35,643 nt of DNA from a virus (Duplodnaviria > Caudoviricetes), in the IMG/VR virus record IMGVR_UViG_3300011339_000249, positions 1-35,643 of that record; one strand, written 5' to 3'. Positions 549 through 30,011 of this stretch are shown here, piece by piece. The position numbers were made by a program, and so were the translations under genes. The notes beneath the pieces are model-generated. The model saw only the letters and a list, made by a program, of their open reading frames with translations. It made no database searches and was not told the origin of the DNA. The stretch's first letter is position 1, and each line of letters begins with the position of its first letter.

Positions 549-803
549 TCAACACTTCCATCTTTTAAGGGCTGCTTTGGCTCGCTCGCCGTCTTTGGCG
601 TGTGCCGCTACAGCGCCCATTCTTGCACAAAATGAAGCCTTGCGGCCTTCGTCTGCCTTGGTCTTTGGGTTGGGTGCTGGTGGTTTAAGGTTGGAGCCTG
701 TCTCTCGGTTGTACTTTTCGCGGCCTTTGGCCGTCAAGCCTGCACCTTTGGAAACGGGTAGTTTCTCACCTCGGCCAACGCTAAGAGATACGTTTTTTTT
801 CAT
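549..803 (-). CDS. Small basic conserved phage protein (SFCARM motif, DUF6321-like)
   Basis: MKKNVSLSVGRGEK...RKASFCARM...ALKRWKC; start reassigned to 803, giving an ATGA overlap with the terL stop. Confidence 0.75.
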   Translation of the reverse strand: MKKNVSLSVGRGEKLPVSKGAGLTAKGREKYNRETGSNLKPPAPNPKTKADEGRKASFCARMGAVAAHAKDGERAKAALKRWKC

Positions 804-2323
804 GCGCCCATCCAACCAGTTACCGCAGTGCCCTGCGCGTTAAAACGTGTGTGCGCTGGTTCTTTGTATTCTCTGTGCGCCACAGGAAAAGCAAACGTCA
901 CTGCAAGCGCATCAGCTGCATCTGGTGAAGCTAAACCTCTTGCTCGCATTTCTTTTTTGCCTTCCAAAAATATAGTGCCCGAAGAATTTGGTTTCTTTGT
1001 TGGGCCAGTAAAATCAGCTTTCAGTTGCCGATCTGTGGGAATACTAGCAGATTTCAGCCAGTTACGCATGTCATTCCACATCTCTGCTCGCTTATTTCCA
1101 AATGCTTGCGAGTGCTTGGCCTTATTCCCGAAATTCACACCCCGGACCTTGTACCTTTGCTCTGTCAGCCGGTCAAGAATGCCATACCCAAGGCCACCCT
1201 CATCGATGACGGTAAGCGTTGGTTTGTATTCCTCAATCGCATCAATCACCCGACCAACAATCTCCATCGTGTCCTCGCCCTTGTACCTCTTGATGGCCAC
1301 AATGTCCCGTCCTTGTCTCACCACAATCACAGTCGAATCTGCGCCACCGCGGGCTGGATCAACTCCCAAAATTATCGGTGCCGTCAAATCCTTGTAACGC
1401 GGGCGCTTGGCAGCGTCATCCACAATCACCGGGCTGATAAATTGATCTTCACCAGCTGAAGGAAACTCACCATACACCTCGACCTTGGCTTGGGCTGAGT
1501 CCTCGCCATATTCGGCAATGATCTGCTCATAAACCGACTTATCGGTGTCTTCCACCGTCCTAGCATCCACAATTTTGGACGTCCAAAAGTTGCGTTTGGC
1601 GTGAAAACACTCAAAAAAGTAGCCTTCATTGCGCCGCGGGTTAGAAAATGCAAACCAGTACCTGTCCGGCGTGTTTTCTGTAAAGAATCCAGCTCCAACT
1701 TCCCAAATCGGGTTAGGGATACCGCTAGATTCATCAAAAATCAACATCATGCCGTCTTGGTTGTGCACACCAGCGTAAGAATCGGGGTTTTCAGCACTCC
1801 AAAGCTTGCCTTCGCAGGCCCAATAACGGGTGCCTTTACGCAAATCGCGCTCTACCAGCTCGGTCAGCCATTGCGCCGGCACCAGTTTGGTGGCTGAAAT
1901 CTCCCACCAGTGCGAGTTAATAAGCATGGCTGCCCATTTGGTCAATTCTGCCCAGGTAACTGAGCGCAGCTGGTTCTCGCTGTTGGCGCTGACCACTACT
2001 GAGCCACCAATGCGAGTCGTTAGCATCCAAAGTATCAGCCAAGATACCAAGGCTGATTTGCCAATGCCTCGACCAGAAGATACAGCCATGCGGATGGTGT
2101 CATAATCAATCAAACCCTTTTGCTTCTTGATGTGCGCGGTTATATCCCTCAACACTTCTCGTTGCCATTTGCGCGGTCCACTAAACTTCTCCAGCGGCGT
2201 ATTCTTTTGACCCCAAGGAAAAGCAAACAGCACAAAAGCTTCAGGGTCATCAGCAATGGCCGGTGACCAAAGCTCCACCATCAGCTTTTGTTCTTCTTCA
2301 GACTTGTAGATCGTTGTTTGCAT
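800..2323 (-). CDS. terL: Terminase large subunit
   Basis: Walker A SGRGIGKS, Walker B LIFDES, coupling motif FSNP, RNase H-like nuclease motifs LGVDPARGGAD and SPDAADALA. Confidence 0.95.
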   Translation of the reverse strand: MQTTIYKSEEEQKLMVELWSPAIADDPEAFVLFAFPWGQKNTPLEKFSGPRKWQREVLRDITAHIKKQKGLIDYDTIRMAVSSGRGIGKSALVSWLILWMLTTRIGGSVVVSANSENQLRSVTWAELTKWAAMLINSHWWEISATKLVPAQWLTELVERDLRKGTRYWACEGKLWSAENPDSYAGVHNQDGMMLIFDESSGIPNPIWEVGAGFFTENTPDRYWFAFSNPRRNEGYFFECFHAKRNFWTSKIVDARTVEDTDKSVYEQIIAEYGEDSAQAKVEVYGEFPSAGEDQFISPVIVDDAAKRPRYKDLTAPIILGVDPARGGADSTVIVVRQGRDIVAIKRYKGEDTMEIVGRVIDAIEEYKPTLTVIDEGGLGYGILDRLTEQRYKVRGVNFGNKAKHSQAFGNKRAEMWNDMRNWLKSASIPTDRQLKADFTGPTKKPNSSGTIFLEGKKEMRARGLASPDAADALAVTFAFPVAHREYKEPAHTRFNAQGTAVTGWMGA

Positions 2324-2326
2324 TGA

Positions 2327-4375
2327 TTAAGGTGCAGCCAGGTAATTGGCTGGCTGCTCTGGTGCTGGTTGTGGTGCCAACATGTTTTTTGCAGCCATCG
2401 CTCCACCAGCAAGACCTGCAGTGCCAAGCATTGCAGCGGGAGTGGCGGCACCATAGTAAAGCTCTCGCCAATCACCTTCTTTCATCACCGGCTTGGTGCC
2501 GGTGTACCCTGCCTGCTTATGCGCGGCCAGCGCGTCGCGCATTTCTTGCCATGACTGCTTGGGCAACAACCTGTAGTCCGGATGGGCAAACTCATGGGGC
2601 TCCAACCTCTGGCGATAAACATCCCATTTGCGCCACTGTTCAGGAAACAACTCAATCGCTGGGTTTGCGCCCCTAGACTCATCAACGTAGTCAACCACTC
2701 TTTTGTAAAACGGGTTGAAGTCTTGCAGCTGCTTAGGCTCAAACGCCAATTTTTCAGGCGTGGCCACTCCAGGTATTTCATTCAATTCGCCAGTTTTGGT
2801 GCGATACATTTTCGACAATGATGATCCACCAATCACGTCAATGGCAGCCTTTTCAACCTTCTTGGTCGGCACTCCCAAAATAGCTTCTTTAGTTGGCTCA
2901 ACTCCCAACTTGCCAGCCATGCGAGTTCTAAATGCTTCCCCCACAATTGGATCGTCCAACATCCTCTCATACGAGTGCCGGATCATGTGCAAATCAACAG
3001 CCGACGTGTTTGCACGGTTTAAGTCCAACCAAGGCGTACCCAACGATGCAGTCTTTGGACCCAAGCCCGGCACCTGGTTCATTACCCTCAACGTCACATC
3101 CCTCATAGTCTCCCCAGGCGCAATCTGAAACATCTCAGGCTTGTCCAAAATCAATTTGGCCAACATCGCCTGATTCTTCAAATCTGCCGTGCCCAGCACT
3201 CCCATGCCACCGCGGCCAGCTGCCTGCACTCCCGTCTGCCCCTGCGCCGTGACAGACAAACCAGGCTCGCCAACCCTACCGGCCAGCGCCTTCAACTCAT
3301 CCATATTCGTCAACCTCAACCGCTGCGCCAAAAACTCATTGGGCGTCAACGGCGCATTAGGCGACAACTGGGCAAAACTCAACCGGTTAAACATGTCCAC
3401 CTGATCCGGATTGGCCACCTCATGCGTCCTGATCAACTTCTGCATCAGCTTGTCATGCACGTCCTTTGGCAGCGCCGCGGGATCAATATTGTTGGCCTTC
3501 ATCCAGAACATGTCCGGCACCGTAAACTTGCCCTCCAAACCACCAGGTATCTTGATCTCTCTCTTGCTGGTCAAGTCAGTAATGCCAAGCGACTTGGGCT
3601 CGGTCACCGTCATATTCACGCCGTGCTTCTCGCCCCAAGCTTTCCACTCAGCCTCACTCGCCTTGGCCCCTGGCGTCGTTGGCGCCTCACCCTTCATCCT
3701 TGTGCGCGTAGACAACGCATCATCAATCACCGACTTAGGCACATACCCGTTAATCTTAAAAGCCGGATTGTTCAATATTGATTTCGCTATATCTGGGTTG
3801 CCCTTCAATAACTTTTTCACCTCAGACCTCGGCACCGCGCTACCTGTGACTTCACCAGTAAAAGCCAAGTCGGCCAGCTCTTTATCCTTGCTGCTTAATT
3901 TTTGATATTGCTCTGCAATGTTCTGAAATTTTTGCAAATCAGTTGGCGGCCTTGCTGCGCCAGGCTGAACCGCAAAAGAAGGCTGCGGTGTAATTCCCCT
4001 TAACGGGCCTTCGTTAAACATTCCGCGCTCAATTTGCAGCAAAGCCTCTTTGCTTAAAAACTTTGCAGCAGGACCAAGAACTGTACGCAATGCCTGCATA
4101 CCAGGCCCAACCAAAGTAGCCATACCAGTGGCATACCCCTGCTCACCTCGACCAATAATATTTTGATAGTTTGGGTTCATTACGCTAAACCCCATCTGAT
4201 CAGGGCGCTCACCCAACATGCCACTGACAAAAGCATATGTCTGCGGATCAGGCAACATATTCACGTTTCTTTGCTGCGCTAATGCTCTTGCCTTTGCCCC
4301 TTGACGCTGAATATTCGGGTTGACAAACCCAACAAATTGATTTGCATCGTCAGGCGCCAGTTTATTTTTGGCCAT
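2327..4375 (-). CDS. 682-aa protein with an HhH-GPD superfamily DNA glycosylase-like domain; possibly virion-packaged
   Basis: FNRLSFAQLSPN, VPGLGPKTAS (HhH, Lys441) and AVDLHMIR (Asp461); low-complexity Ala/Gly/Pro/Gln ends resemble ejection proteins. Confidence 0.65.
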   Translation of the reverse strand: MAKNKLAPDDANQFVGFVNPNIQRQGAKARALAQQRNVNMLPDPQTYAFVSGMLGERPDQMGFSVMNPNYQNIIGRGEQGYATGMATLVGPGMQALRTVLGPAAKFLSKEALLQIERGMFNEGPLRGITPQPSFAVQPGAARPPTDLQKFQNIAEQYQKLSSKDKELADLAFTGEVTGSAVPRSEVKKLLKGNPDIAKSILNNPAFKINGYVPKSVIDDALSTRTRMKGEAPTTPGAKASEAEWKAWGEKHGVNMTVTEPKSLGITDLTSKREIKIPGGLEGKFTVPDMFWMKANNIDPAALPKDVHDKLMQKLIRTHEVANPDQVDMFNRLSFAQLSPNAPLTPNEFLAQRLRLTNMDELKALAGRVGEPGLSVTAQGQTGVQAAGRGGMGVLGTADLKNQAMLAKLILDKPEMFQIAPGETMRDVTLRVMNQVPGLGPKTASLGTPWLDLNRANTSAVDLHMIRHSYERMLDDPIVGEAFRTRMAGKLGVEPTKEAILGVPTKKVEKAAIDVIGGSSLSKMYRTKTGELNEIPGVATPEKLAFEPKQLQDFNPFYKRVVDYVDESRGANPAIELFPEQWRKWDVYRQRLEPHEFAHPDYRLLPKQSWQEMRDALAAHKQAGYTGTKPVMKEGDWRELYYGAATPAAMLGTAGLAGGAMAAKNMLAPQPAPEQPANYLAAP

Positions 4376-4644: not shown

Positions 4645-4748
4645 TTATCCACAGGCTGAGTGCATAATCAGGCCAAGGTTAGACACATTGCCCTGTGGAC
4701 AACTACATTCTGCACAATTAGTAGGCAGAAACGCATGAGTTATCCACA
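4645..4748. promoter_or_regulatory. DnaA-box cluster
   Basis: Perfect TTATCCACA at 4645-4653 and 4740-4748. Near matches: TTATGCACT (rc 4659-4667), TTGTCCACA (rc 4694-4702), TTCTGCACA (4708-4716). Confidence 0.7.
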
Positions 4749-4847: not shown

Positions 4848-5321
4848 CTACTTTGGCTCTACGTCGGTAATATCGTCCACCTTGGCCATACCGATTTGCA
4901 CCCTAGCTTGCGCCTGCTCCAGCGCCTGAATAACGCTGATCCGGTTGTCGCTGACGCTGACATCAAGCCGGTCACCATATGTCCGTGGCTTAAGCTTGCT
5001 AGCCACCCACTTGCGCGCATCGACCTGCAAGCGCTTCTGGTTCACCCATGCGCTGACTGCAACGCCTTCTAAATGGTCAGGGATGGGCTGATCTGCCAGT
5101 TCGACAATTTCCTCTGCCAAGCGGTCTGCTCGCTGCTCTACGGCCTTGTGATAGGCCTCCTTAAGCCTTTCATCAGCCTGAAGCATTCGCCAAGCGTGAA
5201 CGTAACTTGGCATACCCGGCTCGCGCAAAGCGCCAGATAAGCTGGCACCGCTGCTGATCTTGTCTAGGATGCCAGGCCAGATGTCCGCGGTGTATTCGAT
5301 TGGTCGTCCCATTTGCCCCAT
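4848..5321 (-). CDS. terS: Terminase small subunit (Sf6 gp1-like)
   Basis: N-terminal GRP plus HTH (GASLSGALREPGMPSY) and the RLQVDARKWVASKLKPRTYGD motif. Confidence 0.85.
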   Translation of the reverse strand: MGQMGRPIEYTADIWPGILDKISSGASLSGALREPGMPSYVHAWRMLQADERLKEAYHKAVEQRADRLAEEIVELADQPIPDHLEGVAVSAWVNQKRLQVDARKWVASKLKPRTYGDRLDVSVSDNRISVIQALEQAQARVQIGMAKVDDITDVEPK

Positions 5322-20103: not shown

Positions 20104-21948
20104 TTATGGAGCCATACTGTTTTTTGATCTAGATGGTGTTGCCAATTGATTTGGCTGTTTAAGTGATTCTTCAAGACGCTTGCTAGTTTGTCGTCCACGT
20201 TCAAATTGTGCTGCTTGTTTTGCAAGCGGAAATCTAATTGCTTCAAGCCCTTCCAATCCTCTAACAACAGCGCCAGCGGTGTTTGGATAATTAACGGCAC
20301 CAGGCTGCTTGACCAAAATATCTTTTAAAGCATCTCTTAAATCAACTATTTGGTTGCGGCCTTGTTTACCAAACATATAGACTAATTTGTCGTCATAATC
20401 CAATTGCTTCACTGCAGTATTGAAATTTTTAAACGACATTTGATCACCCTTGGTGAGCAAATCTTTTAAGTGTTGAATGGTTTGGCCTTGCAATTCAGCA
20501 TATGCCTGGCGGCCTTGTGGACCAGCTTTTTTCAACAAACTGGTAACGGTTCGCATTTCTTCCAAGCTGCCATCTAGCACAACATTCTTAAAGATGTCTT
20601 CATAAGCCACTTGACGATCTGCATAACCAGCTTTGGTGCCAAGCAATTTATCTACTCTAGACACATTTTCAAATTCTTTGGCCAGCTGCTTGCGCTGCGC
20701 TCTGGCTGTGCGGTATAGATTACCACCAGCGCCTTCGGTGGCCTGGTCAATCAATTGTTTCAATTGCTTGGCATTTGCTGAGCCTTTGACTTTGCCAACT
20801 TCTTGGTATACGTCTTCCAATGCGCGAATTGAAATTGTGCCCTTGTTGCTTGGGTCATTCATTCTTAATGATTCAGCCACTGAGTCCAAAATTGGGTCCA
20901 GCTTTTGTCTCATTGTTGGTGTTTTTTGATTTATGAAATCAACAATGCTTTGGTATGGGACTTCTTGCAAAGTTTCACCGGCAGTGTCTGCATTTGCATA
21001 AGCTTTTTTGTAAGCTTTAAATTTCTTTTCATATGTATCAACCAACGCTTTATCAACCAATTTGCCAACCTGGCGCATTTGAGTCGGGTCTGCAACCTCG
21101 GCACCAGTTTGCTCGGCCATGCTTTCAAGTTTTTGGGAAATGGCTTGTTTTTGTTGTTCTCTAAACCTAGCCATTTGTTCGACAAGTTCTTGTTTTTTAG
21201 CTTCACTAACACCAGAAATAGCGCCGCGCTCAATGTCGGATTCAAATTGTTGTTGCGCCAAAGACTTAGTGCGCTCACCAGCTGTAGCAGGCAAGTTCAT
21301 TCTTTGCAGGCGCTCTTCACGCAACAAGTCTTCGGCAGTGCTTGCAGCTCCCATGCCTTGCATGGTTGGCTGTTGACGAGTCAAAGTATTTGCCAACACG
21401 TTCTTAGCAGGTGCTACGGCCTGTCTAAGGATAGGACTTAATTGGTTGATTGCACCAGGCATAAGAGTGCTTAAGGCTGTGCCTGCACTGGTCAACGGTG
21501 TAGGTGGTATTGCACCCAAAAATTTGCCTATTGCCCCAGTTATTTCTGGGCCAGTTTCAGTCAAAGGCGTAAAGCCGATCATTTGTCTACTTGCTTTGCC
21601 AACGTCTTTGCCTGCTGACATTCCAAATTCAGTAGGAGTGCCGCCAATATTTTCACCTAAATACTCAGCAACCGGCCCGGCCACTGCACTAATGACATTG
21701 CCGGCAATAAGAGCTGGAGTCTCTGCAACACCCATGATCCTGTCGCGTAACGACACTTCTTTTTTGGGCAAAGTTGTAGTTTTTTCGGCACCAGGTATAT
21801 CAGCACCCACCAAACCTAATTTTTTAAAAAAGTCATTGCGAGGAATCTTGTCGGCATAGAATTTTTGATGCAATGCATCAGCCAACACAACATCTGAAAC
21901 ACTGTTGTATTCGGGGTTTTTTTGACGAAACTCAATAAGTGTTGCCAT
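20104..21948 (-). CDS. DNA ejection/internal virion protein (P22 gp16 position)
   Basis: 614 aa, helical, no Cys seen; third of three genes in the ejection-gene position; N-terminus FRQKNPEYNSVSD..LADALH. Confidence 0.6.
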   Translation of the reverse strand: MATLIEFRQKNPEYNSVSDVVLADALHQKFYADKIPRNDFFKKLGLVGADIPGAEKTTTLPKKEVSLRDRIMGVAETPALIAGNVISAVAGPVAEYLGENIGGTPTEFGMSAGKDVGKASRQMIGFTPLTETGPEITGAIGKFLGAIPPTPLTSAGTALSTLMPGAINQLSPILRQAVAPAKNVLANTLTRQQPTMQGMGAASTAEDLLREERLQRMNLPATAGERTKSLAQQQFESDIERGAISGVSEAKKQELVEQMARFREQQKQAISQKLESMAEQTGAEVADPTQMRQVGKLVDKALVDTYEKKFKAYKKAYANADTAGETLQEVPYQSIVDFINQKTPTMRQKLDPILDSVAESLRMNDPSNKGTISIRALEDVYQEVGKVKGSANAKQLKQLIDQATEGAGGNLYRTARAQRKQLAKEFENVSRVDKLLGTKAGYADRQVAYEDIFKNVVLDGSLEEMRTVTSLLKKAGPQGRQAYAELQGQTIQHLKDLLTKGDQMSFKNFNTAVKQLDYDDKLVYMFGKQGRNQIVDLRDALKDILVKQPGAVNYPNTAGAVVRGLEGLEAIRFPLAKQAAQFERGRQTSKRLEESLKQPNQLATPSRSKNSMAP

Positions 21949-21957
21949 TTCAACCGC

Positions 21958-23712
21958 CTATTTATCTGTAAACAAATTCAAAGGATCAAATGAGTTTGTA
22001 CCTGATTCACCAGGTATCAAACTTTGAATTGATTTTGCTCCTGGTCCAGCTTGAATTTCCATGGCTTTAATTGCCAATTCACGTGCTTTTTGTTTTTGTT
22101 TAATGACAGTAGAGTCTTCTCCTGGCTTGGGAAAATACAATTTTTCTGCTGTTATAAATTCCCCTGGTGAAATTGCTGCGCCTGATTCTTTTCGCAAAAC
22201 TGCTGTGATAAAGTTAATACGTCCATTTACTACTTGTTGTTGTTCTGGACTCATACCTCCTAAAATACCTGGCAACACATTAAAAATATCGTCTGTTGCT
22301 GCAGTAAATTTGTCACCAATAAAAGGAACAAGACCAACCACACTGCCAACCGCTCCTCTAACAACTCCAGTGCCTGTTTCTCCTTTGTTTTCAAGGTCTT
22401 TAAGCAAAGCATGAGAATCTTTCATTCTCATACCAAACGCGGTTGCATTACTTTGTGTTTCAGTCAATCCAGAAGATTTACCTTTTAATACATCGCCGCG
22501 AGGCTGAATGATTGGTGATGTAATATTTACAGCAGCGCCAGGCTTGGTTGCACCGCTAAGCACTGGTGCCGCACCGGCAACAAATGGCGCATTAACTGGT
22601 GGTAGAGTTTGACTAAGGGTAACTGGAAAAGCTTGCAAGGTTCGATTGTTGACGCCAACAATTGAGCCGTCTTCGGACTGTTGAATTGTGTAGCCAGGGT
22701 TGGCTTTTTCCCATGCAAATTTTTGCCGATCAAAATTTAATCGTTCCTGAGCAAGCCGTTCTGACGATCCAAGATTGGCAATTGCTTGATCGTATAGTTT
22801 GCGATTAGGATGGCCTACTGGCAATGCGTCACGCTCTGCAGTTAATCTTTTGATGTCAGTTGGCGTGATGTCTTGTGATGAAGTAAATATATTTTCACCG
22901 CCGCCAGTTACCAAATTTCTACCGACAGTATAAACTTTAGTTAACTGTTCCAGTTCTTTGTTCAAAAACGTAATTTGGTCTTTTGCTTTGGCGCTGTAGG
23001 GGAAATTTGTTCGCAAGTAGTTAATTTCTGCCCGTATTTGATCTGCTTTGGACGGCGTAGCAAGCGCGTTGGTTGGTGCAGCCGCAGCGGGCGGTGGTGT
23101 AGTGGGTAAATTATTGACTCGCGGCGCTGGGTCTACACCTGGCGCTTGAAGATTTGCCGTTACAACTGGTGTGGGTGCGGCTACTGGCGCAGCTAGACCT
23201 TCTGCTCGGCTAGCCACAAAATCGTCGTATGTAACGCCTGCGGGAGCATTTTTTACGTAGTCCATCTTCATCGCTTCATCTATAGGCGCGGATGGGCCAA
23301 CAACAGACGGCGCGGCGGCAGGCGGTGGTTTCGGTGCATTGCGATTTGCATATGATCTGTCTTGCTGATACGCCAAAACTTTTTGGTACGAGGTAAGCAA
23401 ATGGTCGCCCGTAGCTCGCACTTCTGGGCGAGGGTCTTGCAACATCAGCGTTGCCGCTTCCATAGGGTCAGCAGGGCCGCCATGCTTTCCAATCTCACCC
23501 ATAATTTTAGCTACCGTGTCCCGCGCTTCTTGCCCTTGCTGAATTGTCATTTGAACTTGTCCTAATTGCGCTTGGGCCAACTCGTTTTGCGTACCAGCAG
23601 ATTTTCTTTGCGCTTGTGCAGCCAAAATATTTTGTGTTTGACCATACTGCGTCAGTGGGTCATTCAACTGAAGTTGTTGAACACCAAGGGAAATTCTAGG
23701 ATCAATAGCCAT
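21958..23712 (-). CDS. DNA ejection/internal virion protein (P22 gp20 position)
   Basis: 584 aa, Q/A/P-rich, NFITAVLRKESGAAIS motif; synteny. Confidence 0.6.
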   Translation of the reverse strand: MAIDPRISLGVQQLQLNDPLTQYGQTQNILAAQAQRKSAGTQNELAQAQLGQVQMTIQQGQEARDTVAKIMGEIGKHGGPADPMEAATLMLQDPRPEVRATGDHLLTSYQKVLAYQQDRSYANRNAPKPPPAAAPSVVGPSAPIDEAMKMDYVKNAPAGVTYDDFVASRAEGLAAPVAAPTPVVTANLQAPGVDPAPRVNNLPTTPPPAAAAPTNALATPSKADQIRAEINYLRTNFPYSAKAKDQITFLNKELEQLTKVYTVGRNLVTGGGENIFTSSQDITPTDIKRLTAERDALPVGHPNRKLYDQAIANLGSSERLAQERLNFDRQKFAWEKANPGYTIQQSEDGSIVGVNNRTLQAFPVTLSQTLPPVNAPFVAGAAPVLSGATKPGAAVNITSPIIQPRGDVLKGKSSGLTETQSNATAFGMRMKDSHALLKDLENKGETGTGVVRGAVGSVVGLVPFIGDKFTAATDDIFNVLPGILGGMSPEQQQVVNGRINFITAVLRKESGAAISPGEFITAEKLYFPKPGEDSTVIKQKQKARELAIKAMEIQAGPGAKSIQSLIPGESGTNSFDPLNLFTDK

Positions 23713-23722
23713 TTTTTAATCC

Positions 23723-24394
23723 TTAAGGCATGCCACGAGCATATGCGGGATTATTCCCTGCTAATGCGTTTGCTATGTTTTGACTACTTGAATAGTTCAA
23801 ATACGTATTCAAACCGCCCGTCAAAGCGTTTGCTGTGCCAACATAGCCAGACGCCCGTGCAGCCGCGCCGCTGGTAATAGCGTCGCCAACATTTGAAGAC
23901 ATTTGCTGACCTTGCTGACCTATTTGTTGGGCAGTGGATTGGCCCATACCTGTCATAGCTTGCAAAGGTTGCAAACGAGCGGTACGCTCGGACTGATAGC
24001 GGTTGAATGCGTTGGTGTACTCTTGCGAGCCCATTTCTTGGCCGAATCGCGTAAGCGCCTTGCCAGTGCCGCCAGACAGCAAACCACCACGGGCCGCAGC
24101 GGATCGCTCCAAAGCTTTTGTGCCTTCGCTTAATCGAAATGCGTAGCCTGGATCGGCTTGAAACTGATCCATACCAAACGGCGTGTATTTTGATGCCTCA
24201 ACCAGTTCCGGCAACGCATTGACGCCCACGTCGTAAAAAGGTTTCTGTCTTGCAACGTCTTCTTGGTATTGTCTGTATTGCAATCGGGCTGCTTCGCCCG
24301 TAGCATCTGCCTGCATTTGCCCAGCTCTATTTGCTGCACTTGACCCAATTAACGAACTGCCAATAATTGCGGCGGGGATCATCCATGCGGCCAT
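23723..24394 (-). CDS. DNA ejection/pilot protein (P22 gp7-like)
   Basis: G/A/Q-rich, hydrophobic N-terminus, DPGYAFRL..G...SAAARGGLLSG motif. Confidence 0.75.
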   Translation of the reverse strand: MAAWMIPAAIIGSSLIGSSAANRAGQMQADATGEAARLQYRQYQEDVARQKPFYDVGVNALPELVEASKYTPFGMDQFQADPGYAFRLSEGTKALERSAAARGGLLSGGTGKALTRFGQEMGSQEYTNAFNRYQSERTARLQPLQAMTGMGQSTAQQIGQQGQQMSSNVGDAITSGAAARASGYVGTANALTGGLNTYLNYSSSQNIANALAGNNPAYARGMP

Positions 24395-28811: not shown

Positions 28812-30011
28812 TCAACCCCAGATGCGGCAGGCCATCTGTGGACGAATTGTGCTGAAGCCATACAGAACGTCAATACGGCAAGGCATACGGTCGTTGTTGA
28901 TGTCGTACTGACGAACAACGCGCAAGCTAATACCGTTATGAACTGCGCGAGCAGCCATATCGACACCTTGGGGCAGCAACAAATCGGCGGTCGCAAAAGT
29001 GATCGCATCTTTGTGGTAAACCAAGTTCTGGGGGTACTGAGTGCTGGCCGTACCGACAAACACGACGGCTTTGCTGGTAGCAGGCAAAGTCAGCATGGTG
29101 GCCAGAGCATGTGCTGCTGAGTACATTGGCGCAACAGTCACAGTGGCAGTTGTAGTGGTTGTTGAAGAGGCCAAAGCAACAAACTGGAACAACGAACCAG
29201 TGGATTCACGGGTTTGTGGGTTCACAGAGTAAACATCAGCAATCGTAAACACATCACCAACAGCGATAAGTTCACCAGAGCCGACAGTCAATGTCAGAGT
29301 AGATGCACCTTCAGTTGTCACAGCAGCGCCGGTAGTGTTGCCAGTGGCAGCGCGTGTACCAGTGGTGTGTTGCTTGATTGACTGAGACATATTGACTTCG
29401 TCAAAGCCCAACACGCCAGTGCCCATCATGCCGTTCTTGAACTGCTTGCTGACGGTGTCAGTGGGGTTGAACAAACCTTTCATGCCTTCAACCAAACCAG
29501 CGTTTGCAGCAGGATTAACTGTTGCATAGCGTGGGGACATTACAGCAGCGTTTTCGTTCAGTTTTTGTTGCGCTTGCAACAGAACCAAAGAAGTGCCTGG
29601 AGTGGTGCCTGGGGTGCCAACGGTGTTACCGATGGTTTTGTACGCATTGGCAACGTCAGCATCAATGCTGGATGCCAACTGGCTGATACGAGGCTTCAAC
29701 ACACGTTCTGCAAAGTCGTCCAATTGCATGGTCAATTCAGCAGATGTAAAGTTCACGCCGACGTGCTTTTGTGAAGCAACAGTCAGAGTGGTGAACTGTT
29801 CGTTGTCGTCCTGAACTTGCAGAGCGGCACCGTCAGTTACCAGAGCGCGGTCGGGTAAACGGATACGCAATGTAGAACCGATCTTGGCACCTTCAACAGC
29901 AAAGCTGTCGTCGTACTGACGGTTTACGTTACGGGTGATCACCAGGTTGTTCTCGAGAATTTCGAGAGCTTTACGGGTGATCATGTCAATCGTTAAGATA
30001 CTATTAGCCAT
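28812..30011 (-). CDS. Major capsid protein (P22 gp5 coat family)
   Basis: MANSILT...KIGSTLRIRLP; NLVYHKDAITFAT; RIDVLYG; follows the scaffold gene. Confidence 0.92.
   Translation of the reverse strand: MANSILTIDMITRKALEILENNLVITRNVNRQYDDSFAVEGAKIGSTLRIRLPDRALVTDGAALQVQDDNEQFTTLTVASQKHVGVNFTSAELTMQLDDFAERVLKPRISQLASSIDADVANAYKTIGNTVGTPGTTPGTSLVLLQAQQKLNENAAVMSPRYATVNPAANAGLVEGMKGLFNPTDTVSKQFKNGMMGTGVLGFDEVNMSQSIKQHTTGTRAATGNTTGAAVTTEGASTLTLTVGSGELIAVGDVFTIADVYSVNPQTRESTGSLFQFVALASSTTTTTATVTVAPMYSAAHALATMLTLPATSKAVVFVGTASTQYPQNLVYHKDAITFATADLLLPQGVDMAARAVHNGISLRVVRQYDINNDRMPCRIDVLYGFSTIRPQMACRIWG

Follow-up and report, generated by a model that had tools for sequence, protein, structure and literature searches.

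What is encoded by a long gene that lies between the two terminase genes of a phage and matches no recognised family? The question is raised by IMG/VR virus record IMGVR_UViG_3300011339_000249, of which positions 1 to 35,643 were analysed (35,643 nucleotides (nt), hereafter the window). The genome is that of a P22-like phage of 35.6 kb and is nearly complete (98%, CheckV). An open reading frame (ORF) of 682 amino acids (aa), designated P0001, occupies 2327..4375 of the minus strand, between the terminase small subunit gene terS (Sf6-like; 4848..5321, minus; PF20901, E 3e-27) and the large subunit gene terL (800..2323, minus; phrog_2, E 9e-45). The P0001 stop is 4 nt from the terL start, P0001 is 473 nt from terS, all three genes lie on the same strand, and the plus-strand reading of 2327-4375 is closed. 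An original prediction had placed a virion-delivered DNA glycosylase and apurinic/apyrimidinic (AP) lyase at this position, citing four ordered helix-hairpin-helix (HhH)-GPD superfamily motifs in a protein lacking Cys. We confirmed the ORF and all four motifs in order, with FNRLSFAQLSPN starting at residue 329, VPGLGPKTAS at 435 (K441), AVDLHMIR at 459 (D461) and QWRKW at 580, and counted 0 Cys in P0001. In this study, we arrived at a joint reading that we hold tentatively, with somewhat less than even confidence: P0001 would be a swappable, packaged and injected Ogg2-fold glycosylase/AP-lyase that excises oxidised guanine.

Predicted fold of P0001

Sequence searches of Pfam, PHROGs, NCBIfam, PADLOC and PDB gave no match for P0001 except one PHROG chance match (E 0.028), and alignments of its relatives returned no family for the glycosylase domain either. 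Nothing matched the core in a tblastn search of 50,697 records from cultured phages, and the single significant match in BFVD was an uncharacterised homologue. The fold was then examined with AlphaFold models of residues 176-650 and 296-600, each with a mean predicted local distance difference test score (pLDDT) of 95. When compared with 48,161 chains by VIA-align, the top match was TmOgg (3n0u; Z 12.7, root mean square deviation (rmsd) 2.9, 194 of 209 residues aligned). The first 22 rows of this whole-library comparison were base-excision glycosylases or DUF2419 queuine-salvage enzymes, with Ogg2 leading; we take DUF2419 to have an HhH-GPD fold as well. VIA of the trimmed model against Foldseek's 769 chains gave Z 14.5 for the Ogg2 enzymes MjOgg (3fhf/3knt) and TmOgg (3n0u), with rmsd 3.1-3.3 over 194-197 residues, followed by human OGG1 (hOGG1; Z 10.1) and by AGOG and EndoIII (both Z 8.2). 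Foldseek itself put OGG1, MjOgg, EndoIII and TmOgg on top, all at E 0.056 or worse.

The comparison covers chiefly residues ~297-594, the HhH-GPD core that superposes on Ogg2 (2594..3487, minus), and barely covers 176-296 and 595-650. As for a possible counterpart of the N-terminal beta-sheet A-domain, which supplies Gly42 in OGG1, there is a loose alignment of the model, from residues 58-65 onward, with 8vx4 (rmsd 4.6) and 3f10 (rmsd 5.2). The hairpin VPGLGPKTAS lies at 3044..3073 (minus), with the codon of K441, the predicted Schiff-base lysine, at 3053-3055. In the 296-600 model, the hairpin is found between helices 129-139 and 145-155, K441 opens helix 145-155, and D461 caps helix 167-177. 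The superfamily features are thus present: a two-lobed helical fold in the model, and a Lys after the hairpin followed by an Asp 18-20 residues on. The 4Fe-4S Cys cluster of the EndoIII/MutY/MIG type is absent from P0001, and 136/138 homologous domains are likewise without Cys. These results suggest that P0001 has a predicted HhH-GPD fold closest to Ogg2. They agree with the fold and the Fe-S-free, Ogg-type relationship that had been proposed, with Foldseek giving the same order at E>0.05.

Conserved residues and the predicted base pocket

A family search with residues 230-645 as the query found 182 proteins in the 90% collection and 233 clusters at 50% identity, and 251 aligned rows were reduced to 138 sequences at <70% identity. 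K441, D461, D585 and G392 were invariant (138/138), so that the proposed catalytic pair is kept in these homologues. Near-invariant positions were S338, N346, H463 (134/138), Y557, Q580 (137), W584 (137), R588, E592, P593 and H594 (137). D461, the predicted catalytic Asp, and H463, at the position of hOGG1 His270, are encoded at 2987..2995 (minus). Between P0001 and 7 close loci, dN/dS was 0.013-0.040. Because residues are kept in 138/138 sequences, dN/dS is this low and pLDDT reaches 95, the ORF and its motifs are more than chance.

The base-pocket helix and loop, Q580-W584-D585-R588-E592-P593-H594, are encoded at 2594..2638 (minus). Their register was read from alignment end points on the assumption that the last helix is gap-free: model residue 295 falls on hOGG1 325 and model residue 299 (H594) on Ogg2 207. 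This puts Q580 on hOGG1 Gln315, W584 on Phe319 and H594 on the C-terminal Lys207 of Ogg2. As described in the accessible text of PMC3397491, Lys249 and Asp268 of OGG1 carry out catalysis, Gln315 and Phe319 read and stack the base, and His270 contacts the phosphate; the Ogg2 counterparts of Gln315/Phe319 are Asp194/Trp198. The same text names the Gly42 carbonyl in OGG1 and the C-terminal Lys carboxylate in Ogg2 as the N7-H sensor of 8-oxoguanine (8-oxoG), and notes that the lyase step may be incidental. A conserved Asp-Lys dyad is argued for in the accessible part of PMC13490550. In the model, the guanine pocket of OGG1 is matched by Q580, W584 and H463, so that the pocket appears to be of the guanine type, with a mid-chain His where Ogg2 ends. 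The earlier view that the sequence does not reveal the substrate was thus too pessimistic, since this pocket points to a guanine derivative, for which there are several candidates. These results suggest that P0001 is very probably an active glycosylase on a guanine derivative.

Relationship to known families

We compared P0001 with the families that it resembles. Ogg2 (MjOgg 3fhf/3knt, TmOgg 3n0u; PF22175) is also free of Fe-S and has the HhH Lys and Asp and a Trp in the pocket helix, and no other family matches the model as well in structure, with almost all of the Ogg2 chain aligned (Z 14.5). However, identity is 12-14%, Gln580 stands for Asp194, and His594 stands for the C-terminal Lys, after which the P0001 chain runs on for 88 aa. 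Unlike Ogg2, P0001 also has an N-terminal extension of ~120 aa and a long insertion, and is phage cargo. No PF22175 match was found for P0001 (control matches were obtained in 3 of 14 genomes), and Ogg2 sequences sought for alignment were found in 0/151 genomes. Because the near-invariant H594 replaces the C-terminal sensor lysine, P0001 is not regarded as a member of Ogg2. OGG1 (human, Clostridium) shares the Gln and aromatic residue at i and i+4 and the His two residues after the Asp (Gln315/Phe319/His270 against Q580/W584/H463), but as a structural match it has a lower Z (about 10) than Ogg2.

DUF7178 (PF23802) shows SP..N, K-T, D-x-[HW], Y and Q-x-x-x-W in the same order as the P0001 family when compared by eye. 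One of these elements is the SPN-x-PL-x-x-N motif of P0001 (residues 338-346; 3338..3364, minus), likely the DNA-wedge loop, for which DUF7178 has LSP...N at the same place. In contrast to P0001, DUF7178 is ~190 aa long and is without the PGG hairpin, the insertion and the EPHE loop; D461 and Y557 are 96 residues apart, versus 20 in stand-alone DUF7178, which corresponds to an insertion of ~75 aa. The nearest Atlas clusters to P0001 carry DUF7178 (0.87-0.89, under the 0.9 mark and thus a lead only). The PF23802 hidden Markov model (HMM) matched neither P0001 nor 53 A2 members, with true members scoring 56-243 bits, and hhalign with a 6-sequence profile gave E 0.011 and probability 3.8% over 32 columns. 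A DUF7178 domain was found in 1/301 genomes, within the ~1713-aa protein P0316 (L355:1-3483, minus, a bacterial genome assembly), so that bona fide DUF7178 is also a module of a giant protein. This domain matches 38 actinophage records, several of them deposited as 'glycosylase', and no mention of DUF7178 was found in the literature searched. By its sequence pattern, DUF7178 is probably a distant sister family of the P0001 domain, without membership. P0001 would work like an Ogg-type glycosylase, judging from the models, yet it falls outside both Ogg2 and DUF7178.

The anti-phage enzymes Dag1 and Dag2 also have the HhH glycosylase fold, the Lys, the Asp, a D-x-x-x-W pocket and a guanine-derivative substrate, but unlike P0001 they are host-encoded; the comparison uses the residue pattern in the accessible text of the paper. 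According to that text, Dag1 cuts 7-deazaguanine DNA and requires K118, D184 and W188 (bioRxiv 10.1101/2025.10.29.685425). For the amino acid:DNA transferase (AADT)/aGPT-PPlase group, there was no Pfam match, no partner genes for hydroxymethyl-base synthesis were recognised, and the alignment to 8z2m (PaMx11 gp46) was weak (Z 4.0, rmsd 5.6, 193 aligned).

Gene context and a swappable slot

We investigated 192 loci bearing the domain, reduced to 71 representatives at 80% identity, with neighbours labelled by scanning PHROGs with 100 representatives; the neighbours numbered 434 and fell into 258 clusters. At 47/71 loci, terS, terL, portal, scaffold or capsid is no more than four genes away, and at 15/71 the gene is near other virion, ejection or lysis genes. 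In total, 62/71 loci have a head, tail, ejection or lysis gene at a distance of 4 genes or less, a position among late virion genes of the kind used to define polyvalent proteins. The glycosylase gene stands between terS and terL at 5 loci, between terL and portal at 7 and after portal at 19, and in other lineages at the ends of ejection clusters. In a survey of 80 terL relatives, 28 showed both terS and terL; the slot between them held the glycosylase in 3, other large genes in 16 and was empty in 9. The other cargo gave weak ART- and GNAT-like matches below the cut-off, or none, and at distant loci without a recognised terS, C5 methylases and an LPD23 protein were found at or near terL. On a terL tree of 36 rows, the glycosylase label needs 6 changes, 5 of them forced by well-supported branches, and near-identical terL sisters carry different cargo.

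P0001 is itself modular. Residues ~176-650 (2426..3850, minus) form a conserved mobile module consisting of N-terminal helices and a beta-hairpin with a near-invariant PGG (277-279), the HhH-GPD core and a C-terminal extension. The proteins that contain the module are 360 to 4969 aa long; 46/137 are longer than 1000 aa, and 107 have the module close to the C-terminus. Of 47 homologues scanned singly, most were without a Pfam domain; matches were to ART-PolyVal (5), LPD23 (2), GNAT-type (3), PcfJ (2) and methyltransferase (1) domains. In their fusions to ART-PolyVal, LPD23 and GNAT and their proximity to late virion genes, these homologues resemble phage polyvalent proteins. P0001 differs from such proteins, which have several disparate catalytic domains, in having one recognised enzyme domain, although its homologues do conform to that description. 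Late-gene polyvalent proteins are described as packaged in the accessible text of Iyer et al. 2017 (PMC5512222); 'glycosylase' occurs 0 times in its main text, and its supplements may list such a domain.

The N-terminal leader (residues 1-138; 3962..4375, minus) is also found on proteins without the glycosylase domain, with SLT, DUF6973, ART-like or unknown bodies. The first 138 residues, over ~5-138, match 57 further proteins, and the domain HMM finds the glycosylase in 0/57. Among 43 leader-sharing proteins scanned, SLT (1) and DUF6973 (2) were above the cut-off, and ART-PolyVal (5) and MATCAP (1) below it. Other cargo thus occurs both in the same slot (16/28) and behind the same leader (57 proteins), as had been suggested for relatives of P0001. 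In the region L021:8807-10045, a close relative has the gene as two ORFs (196 and 452 aa), with the leader apart from the enzyme, which may reflect a frameshift or an assembly error.

Other cargo and neighbouring genes deserve mention in their own right. A common alternative (L197:4591-6897, L198:2738-4966, L202:4696-6993, L216:2530-5049, L240:2535-4826 and L257:968-3544) has a conserved domain (…H-x-R…EEVQSDWHQ…) without a Pfam or NCBIfam match. A second unannotated cargo family of ~510-560 aa with the same leader type is found at L196:5177-6796, L200:4305-5825, L203:5107-6795 and L210:523-2175. C5 cytosine methylases with an N-terminal N-x-L lie directly upstream of terL (L253:5685-6998, L255:803-2071, L256:555-1808) and are candidate virion-delivered methylases. 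PAPS-reductase-like genes are present 2-3 genes upstream of giant glycosylase-bearing proteins (L173:2023-3114, L180:3052-3858, L185:599-1399), followed in L173 and L180 by an integrase.

A terminal motif shared with ejection proteins

The ends of P0001 had been described as low-complexity and ejection-protein-like. They are not merely low-complexity: residues ~5-138 are the shared leader, and an N-x-L-A motif recurs at both termini. NKLA at residues 4-7 (4355..4366, minus) is a candidate packaging tag, and NMLA (664-667) and NYLA (677-680) follow an Ala/Gly-rich hydrophobic stretch at the C-terminus (2336..2386, minus). Three ejection-protein genes are found at 20104..24394 (minus): a gp7-like gene (23723-24394), which matches phrog_598 (DNA ejection; E 3e-38), and two large genes assigned by position (21958-23712 and 20104-21948). 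Counts of N-x-[LM]-[AT] in the window were 3 for P0001 (at residues 4, 664 and 677), 9 for the ejection proteins, which together have 1421 aa, and 4 for the remaining 25 reference proteins.

Motif enrichment was measured in non-redundant sets from 193 loci against 100 composition shuffles. Observed versus shuffled counts were 34 vs 10.9 for gp7, 104 vs 22.8 for ej+1, 80 vs 21.5 for ej+2, 15 vs 4.3 for HhH cargo and 29 vs 7.3 for other cargo. These five classes were 3-4.6x above the shuffles, and 0/100 shuffles reached the observed count in each. No enrichment was seen in terL (1 vs 2.5), portal (2 vs 6.4), coat (3 vs 2.5), gp10 (0 vs 2.9) or gp4 (0 vs 2.1). When 25,276 three-residue patterns at protein termini were ranked without bias, N.LA came first and NAL second. 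A terminal N.L was present in 31/33 gp7, 43/43 ej+1, 24/24 ej+2, 6/6 HhH cargo and 13/13 other cargo proteins, and in terL 0/11, scaffold 0/16, gp10 0/7 and gp4 0/8. The motif draws its strength from the agreement of five non-homologous classes, since members within a class are homologous.

In another lineage, where 15 loci were picked by eye with no shuffle control, [YFM]-[AK]-x-G-G-x-V occurs in 13/15, at glycosylase-protein ends and domain joints, in a repeat protein encoded nearby and at the C-termini of ejection proteins; it was found in terL 0/11 and portal 0/8. The same lineage has head-adjacent proteins of 400-530 aa in which a [YMR]K[KRS]GG.[VA] repeat that equals the cargo-terminus motif recurs 6-9 times (L142:11446-12660, L157:8632-10095, L174:10444-11763, L178:5040-6545, L129:1814-3391 and L092:19138 onward), and many phages with these GG-repeat proteins also encode GroES.

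P22 ejection proteins and the T4 capsid-targeting sequence are comparable in that internal proteins are recruited in head assembly. In P22, the scaffold is required to recruit ejection proteins, and the N-terminal parts of gp7 and gp20 suffice, as stated in the accessible text of PMC8402733. The literature examined, as far as its text was accessible, shows no shared short motif and holds nothing on point for a podovirus targeting motif, whereas here a motif of 3-4 residues, often doubled, stands at either terminus of non-homologous proteins. A single complex prediction of scaffold 40-263 with the tag peptide 648-682, run without controls, scored 0.00. From its sequence, N-x-L-A could be either a binding tag or a protease site. 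Packaging is supported because N-x-L(A) is common to slot cargo and ejection proteins and rare in most others. The original proposal of packaging and injection thus gained indirect support from gene context, polyvalent fusions and this motif, from which we infer that P0001 is probably packaged and injected.

Restriction-site avoidance

Several 6-bp palindromes are missing from the window (both strands; observed versus expected): TGCGCA 0 vs 34, AACGTT 0 vs 18 and CGGCCG 0 vs 17. This avoidance suggests unmodified DNA under restriction pressure. For 4-mer palindromes, carriers of the glycosylase were less depleted (0.89) than non-carriers (0.79; 16 vs 18 loci, nominal p 6e-5). This contrast was rejected as evidence for an anti-restriction role, as the difference follows clade on the terL tree, and near sisters with different cargo were alike (L027 0.80 vs L206 0.79; L007 0.83 vs L196 0.87; L041 0.76 vs L216 0.81). 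No carrier-specific target-site depletion stood out.

Proposed function and alternatives

P0001 lies in a late packaging operon, is modular in build, and conserves K441/D461 and Q580/W584/H463/H594. In the mechanism that we propose, it would be synthesised late from this operon, loaded into the procapsid through the terminal N-x-L-A motifs shared with ejection proteins, and ejected with the DNA into the cell. After base flipping, Q580 would read the guanine edge and W584 would stack, as in OGG chemistry, and D461 and K441 would catalyse glycosidic cleavage and then beta-elimination. A backbone carbonyl near H594 may replace the Ogg2 terminal carboxylate as the N7-H sensor, in an OGG1-like manner. 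The excised base would be 8-oxoG or formamidopyrimidine-guanine (FapyG) in the incoming genome, and host AP endonuclease, polymerase and ligase would finish the repair before replication. Oxidised guanine is preferred because the folds nearest to that of P0001 are those of Ogg enzymes and a pocket invariant across 25-30% identity suits a small universal lesion; for the substrate taken by itself, the balance tips slightly toward oxidised G over another G derivative.

Several observations weigh against this reading. The enzyme role is drawn from sequence and model comparison. Sequence profiles do not see a glycosylase domain, the Foldseek E-values (0.056 and 0.13) are not significant, and VIA Z values below ~13 can be due to chance in helical proteins, so that only the trimmed-model Ogg2 rows exceed this level. 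The free C-terminal Lys carboxylate that serves as the Ogg2 sensor is lacking, and Gln takes the place of Asp194. Nor is the pocket proof of 8-oxoG, because Dag1, in the accessible description, cuts 7-deazaguanine DNA with a similar Lys/Asp/D-x-x-x-W pocket. Hosts usually have MutM. Rapid gain and loss, with ART-like, GNAT-like and methylase slot-mates, fit conflict better than housekeeping repair. As for packaging, 9/71 loci are without an assignable virion context. The motif was first spotted in the window and its kin, and homologues are not independent; primase, scaffold and a RusA-like gene are ~3-7x above shuffles, with small counts and none terminal, and loose N.L is also terminal in coat (4/4), o101 (5/8), portal (3/14) and terS (3/18).

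Given the conflict-cassette-like behaviour of the slot, 7-deazaguanine and a defence adduct are serious rivals as substrates. In the broadest alternative, which we consider doubtful, N-x-L-A, or [YFM]-[AK]-x-G-G-x-V in the other lineage, would be a minimal address tag for interchangeable capsid enzyme cargo. One such cargo would be a base-excision weapon against the 7-deazaguanine-marked DNA of rival phages or hosts, or a stripper of defence guanine adducts, and thus a virion-delivered counterpart of Dag.

It is unlikely that P0001 is specifically a packaged Dag1-like conflict weapon that excises 7-deazaguanine derivatives (preQ0, dG+, dADG) and fragments rival-phage or dpd-marked host DNA. 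The D/Q-x-x-x-W spacing matches Q580/W584, and the reported need of Dag1 for its Lys, Asp and Trp in cutting 7-deazaguanine DNA, the H594 in place of the 8-oxoG sensor and the fast turnover of the slot all fit such a role. No base-modification genes were recognised in a Pfam scan of the 53 window ORFs, and the missing 6-bp palindromes are consistent with unmodified phage DNA that the enzyme would spare. However, packaging would bring the enzyme into contact with a rival phage only when both infect the same cell, dpd-marked hosts are patchy, and the pocket is invariant throughout a widespread family.

Late Ogg-type repair of replicating or concatemeric DNA before packaging, by a protein that is not a virion component, is distinctly unlikely. 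The gene does sit between the terminase genes, whose products are not virion proteins in P22-like phages, and stand-alone DUF7178 genes occur among small non-structural actinophage genes. Against this, the terminal motif is shared with ejection proteins, the gene in other lineages closes ejection clusters or follows portal, and homologues are fused to polyvalent domains.

We consider it improbable that a packaged glycosylase removes a defence-installed guanine adduct (ADP-ribosyl- or alkyl-guanine) from incoming DNA, so that a block would become an AP site open to repair. Injection timing suits counter-defence, the pocket is guanine-type, a bulkier adduct could be accommodated by the extra N-terminal hairpin and the insertion, and DNA methylases directly upstream of terL are among the slot-mates. 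However, no precedent was found in the literature searched, and restriction-site avoidance is alike in carriers and non-carriers within clades.

An HhH enzyme of other chemistry, whether a pure AP-lyase/nickase, a base-exchanging or modifying transferase (AADT/aGPT-PPlase) or a DUF2419-like nucleotide hydrolase, is the least probable, as the DUF2419 match (Z 8.6, rmsd 5.2) and the weak PaMx11 gp46 match are set against a far higher Z for Ogg2, the retained HhH Lys/Asp dyad and OGG pocket, and a genome in which no modification-pathway genes were recognised.

Other features of the window

The P22-type portal gene is split over both window ends, and the P22 coat gene is at 28812-30011. Further genes include gp4- and gp10-like tail genes, a scaffold-like gene and a primase/helicase/exonuclease block, with the scaffold and gp10 labels resting on gene position. 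A promoter/terminator scan gave no signal above shuffles. Among sequencing runs that contain the sequence, none of RNA was listed; the DNA runs bear riverine, freshwater, lake or coded labels, but 14/20 may be the source of the record and the other 6 show a share of 0.23-0.27, so that habitat does not count as evidence here. Between terS and the cargo gene (4645-4748), there are two perfect and one near 9-mers resembling the DnaA-box consensus. In relatives, 41 such boxes were found in 12.6 kb (the 450 nt after terS; 21/28 loci) versus 23 in 283 kb elsewhere. This cluster may be an origin, a DnaA-controlled promoter or a set of terminase-binding repeats.

Significance

No virion-packaged base-excision enzyme was found in the literature searched. 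If the reading of P0001 as a packaged glycosylase is true, phages would bring their own first-step repair for damage gained outside the cell, or would carry a base-reading weapon. The invariant exchange of the sensor Lys for His poses a direct biochemical question. The shared terminal motif may offer a testable answer to how P22-like phages choose the proteins that they pack, and a possible tag for loading phage heads.

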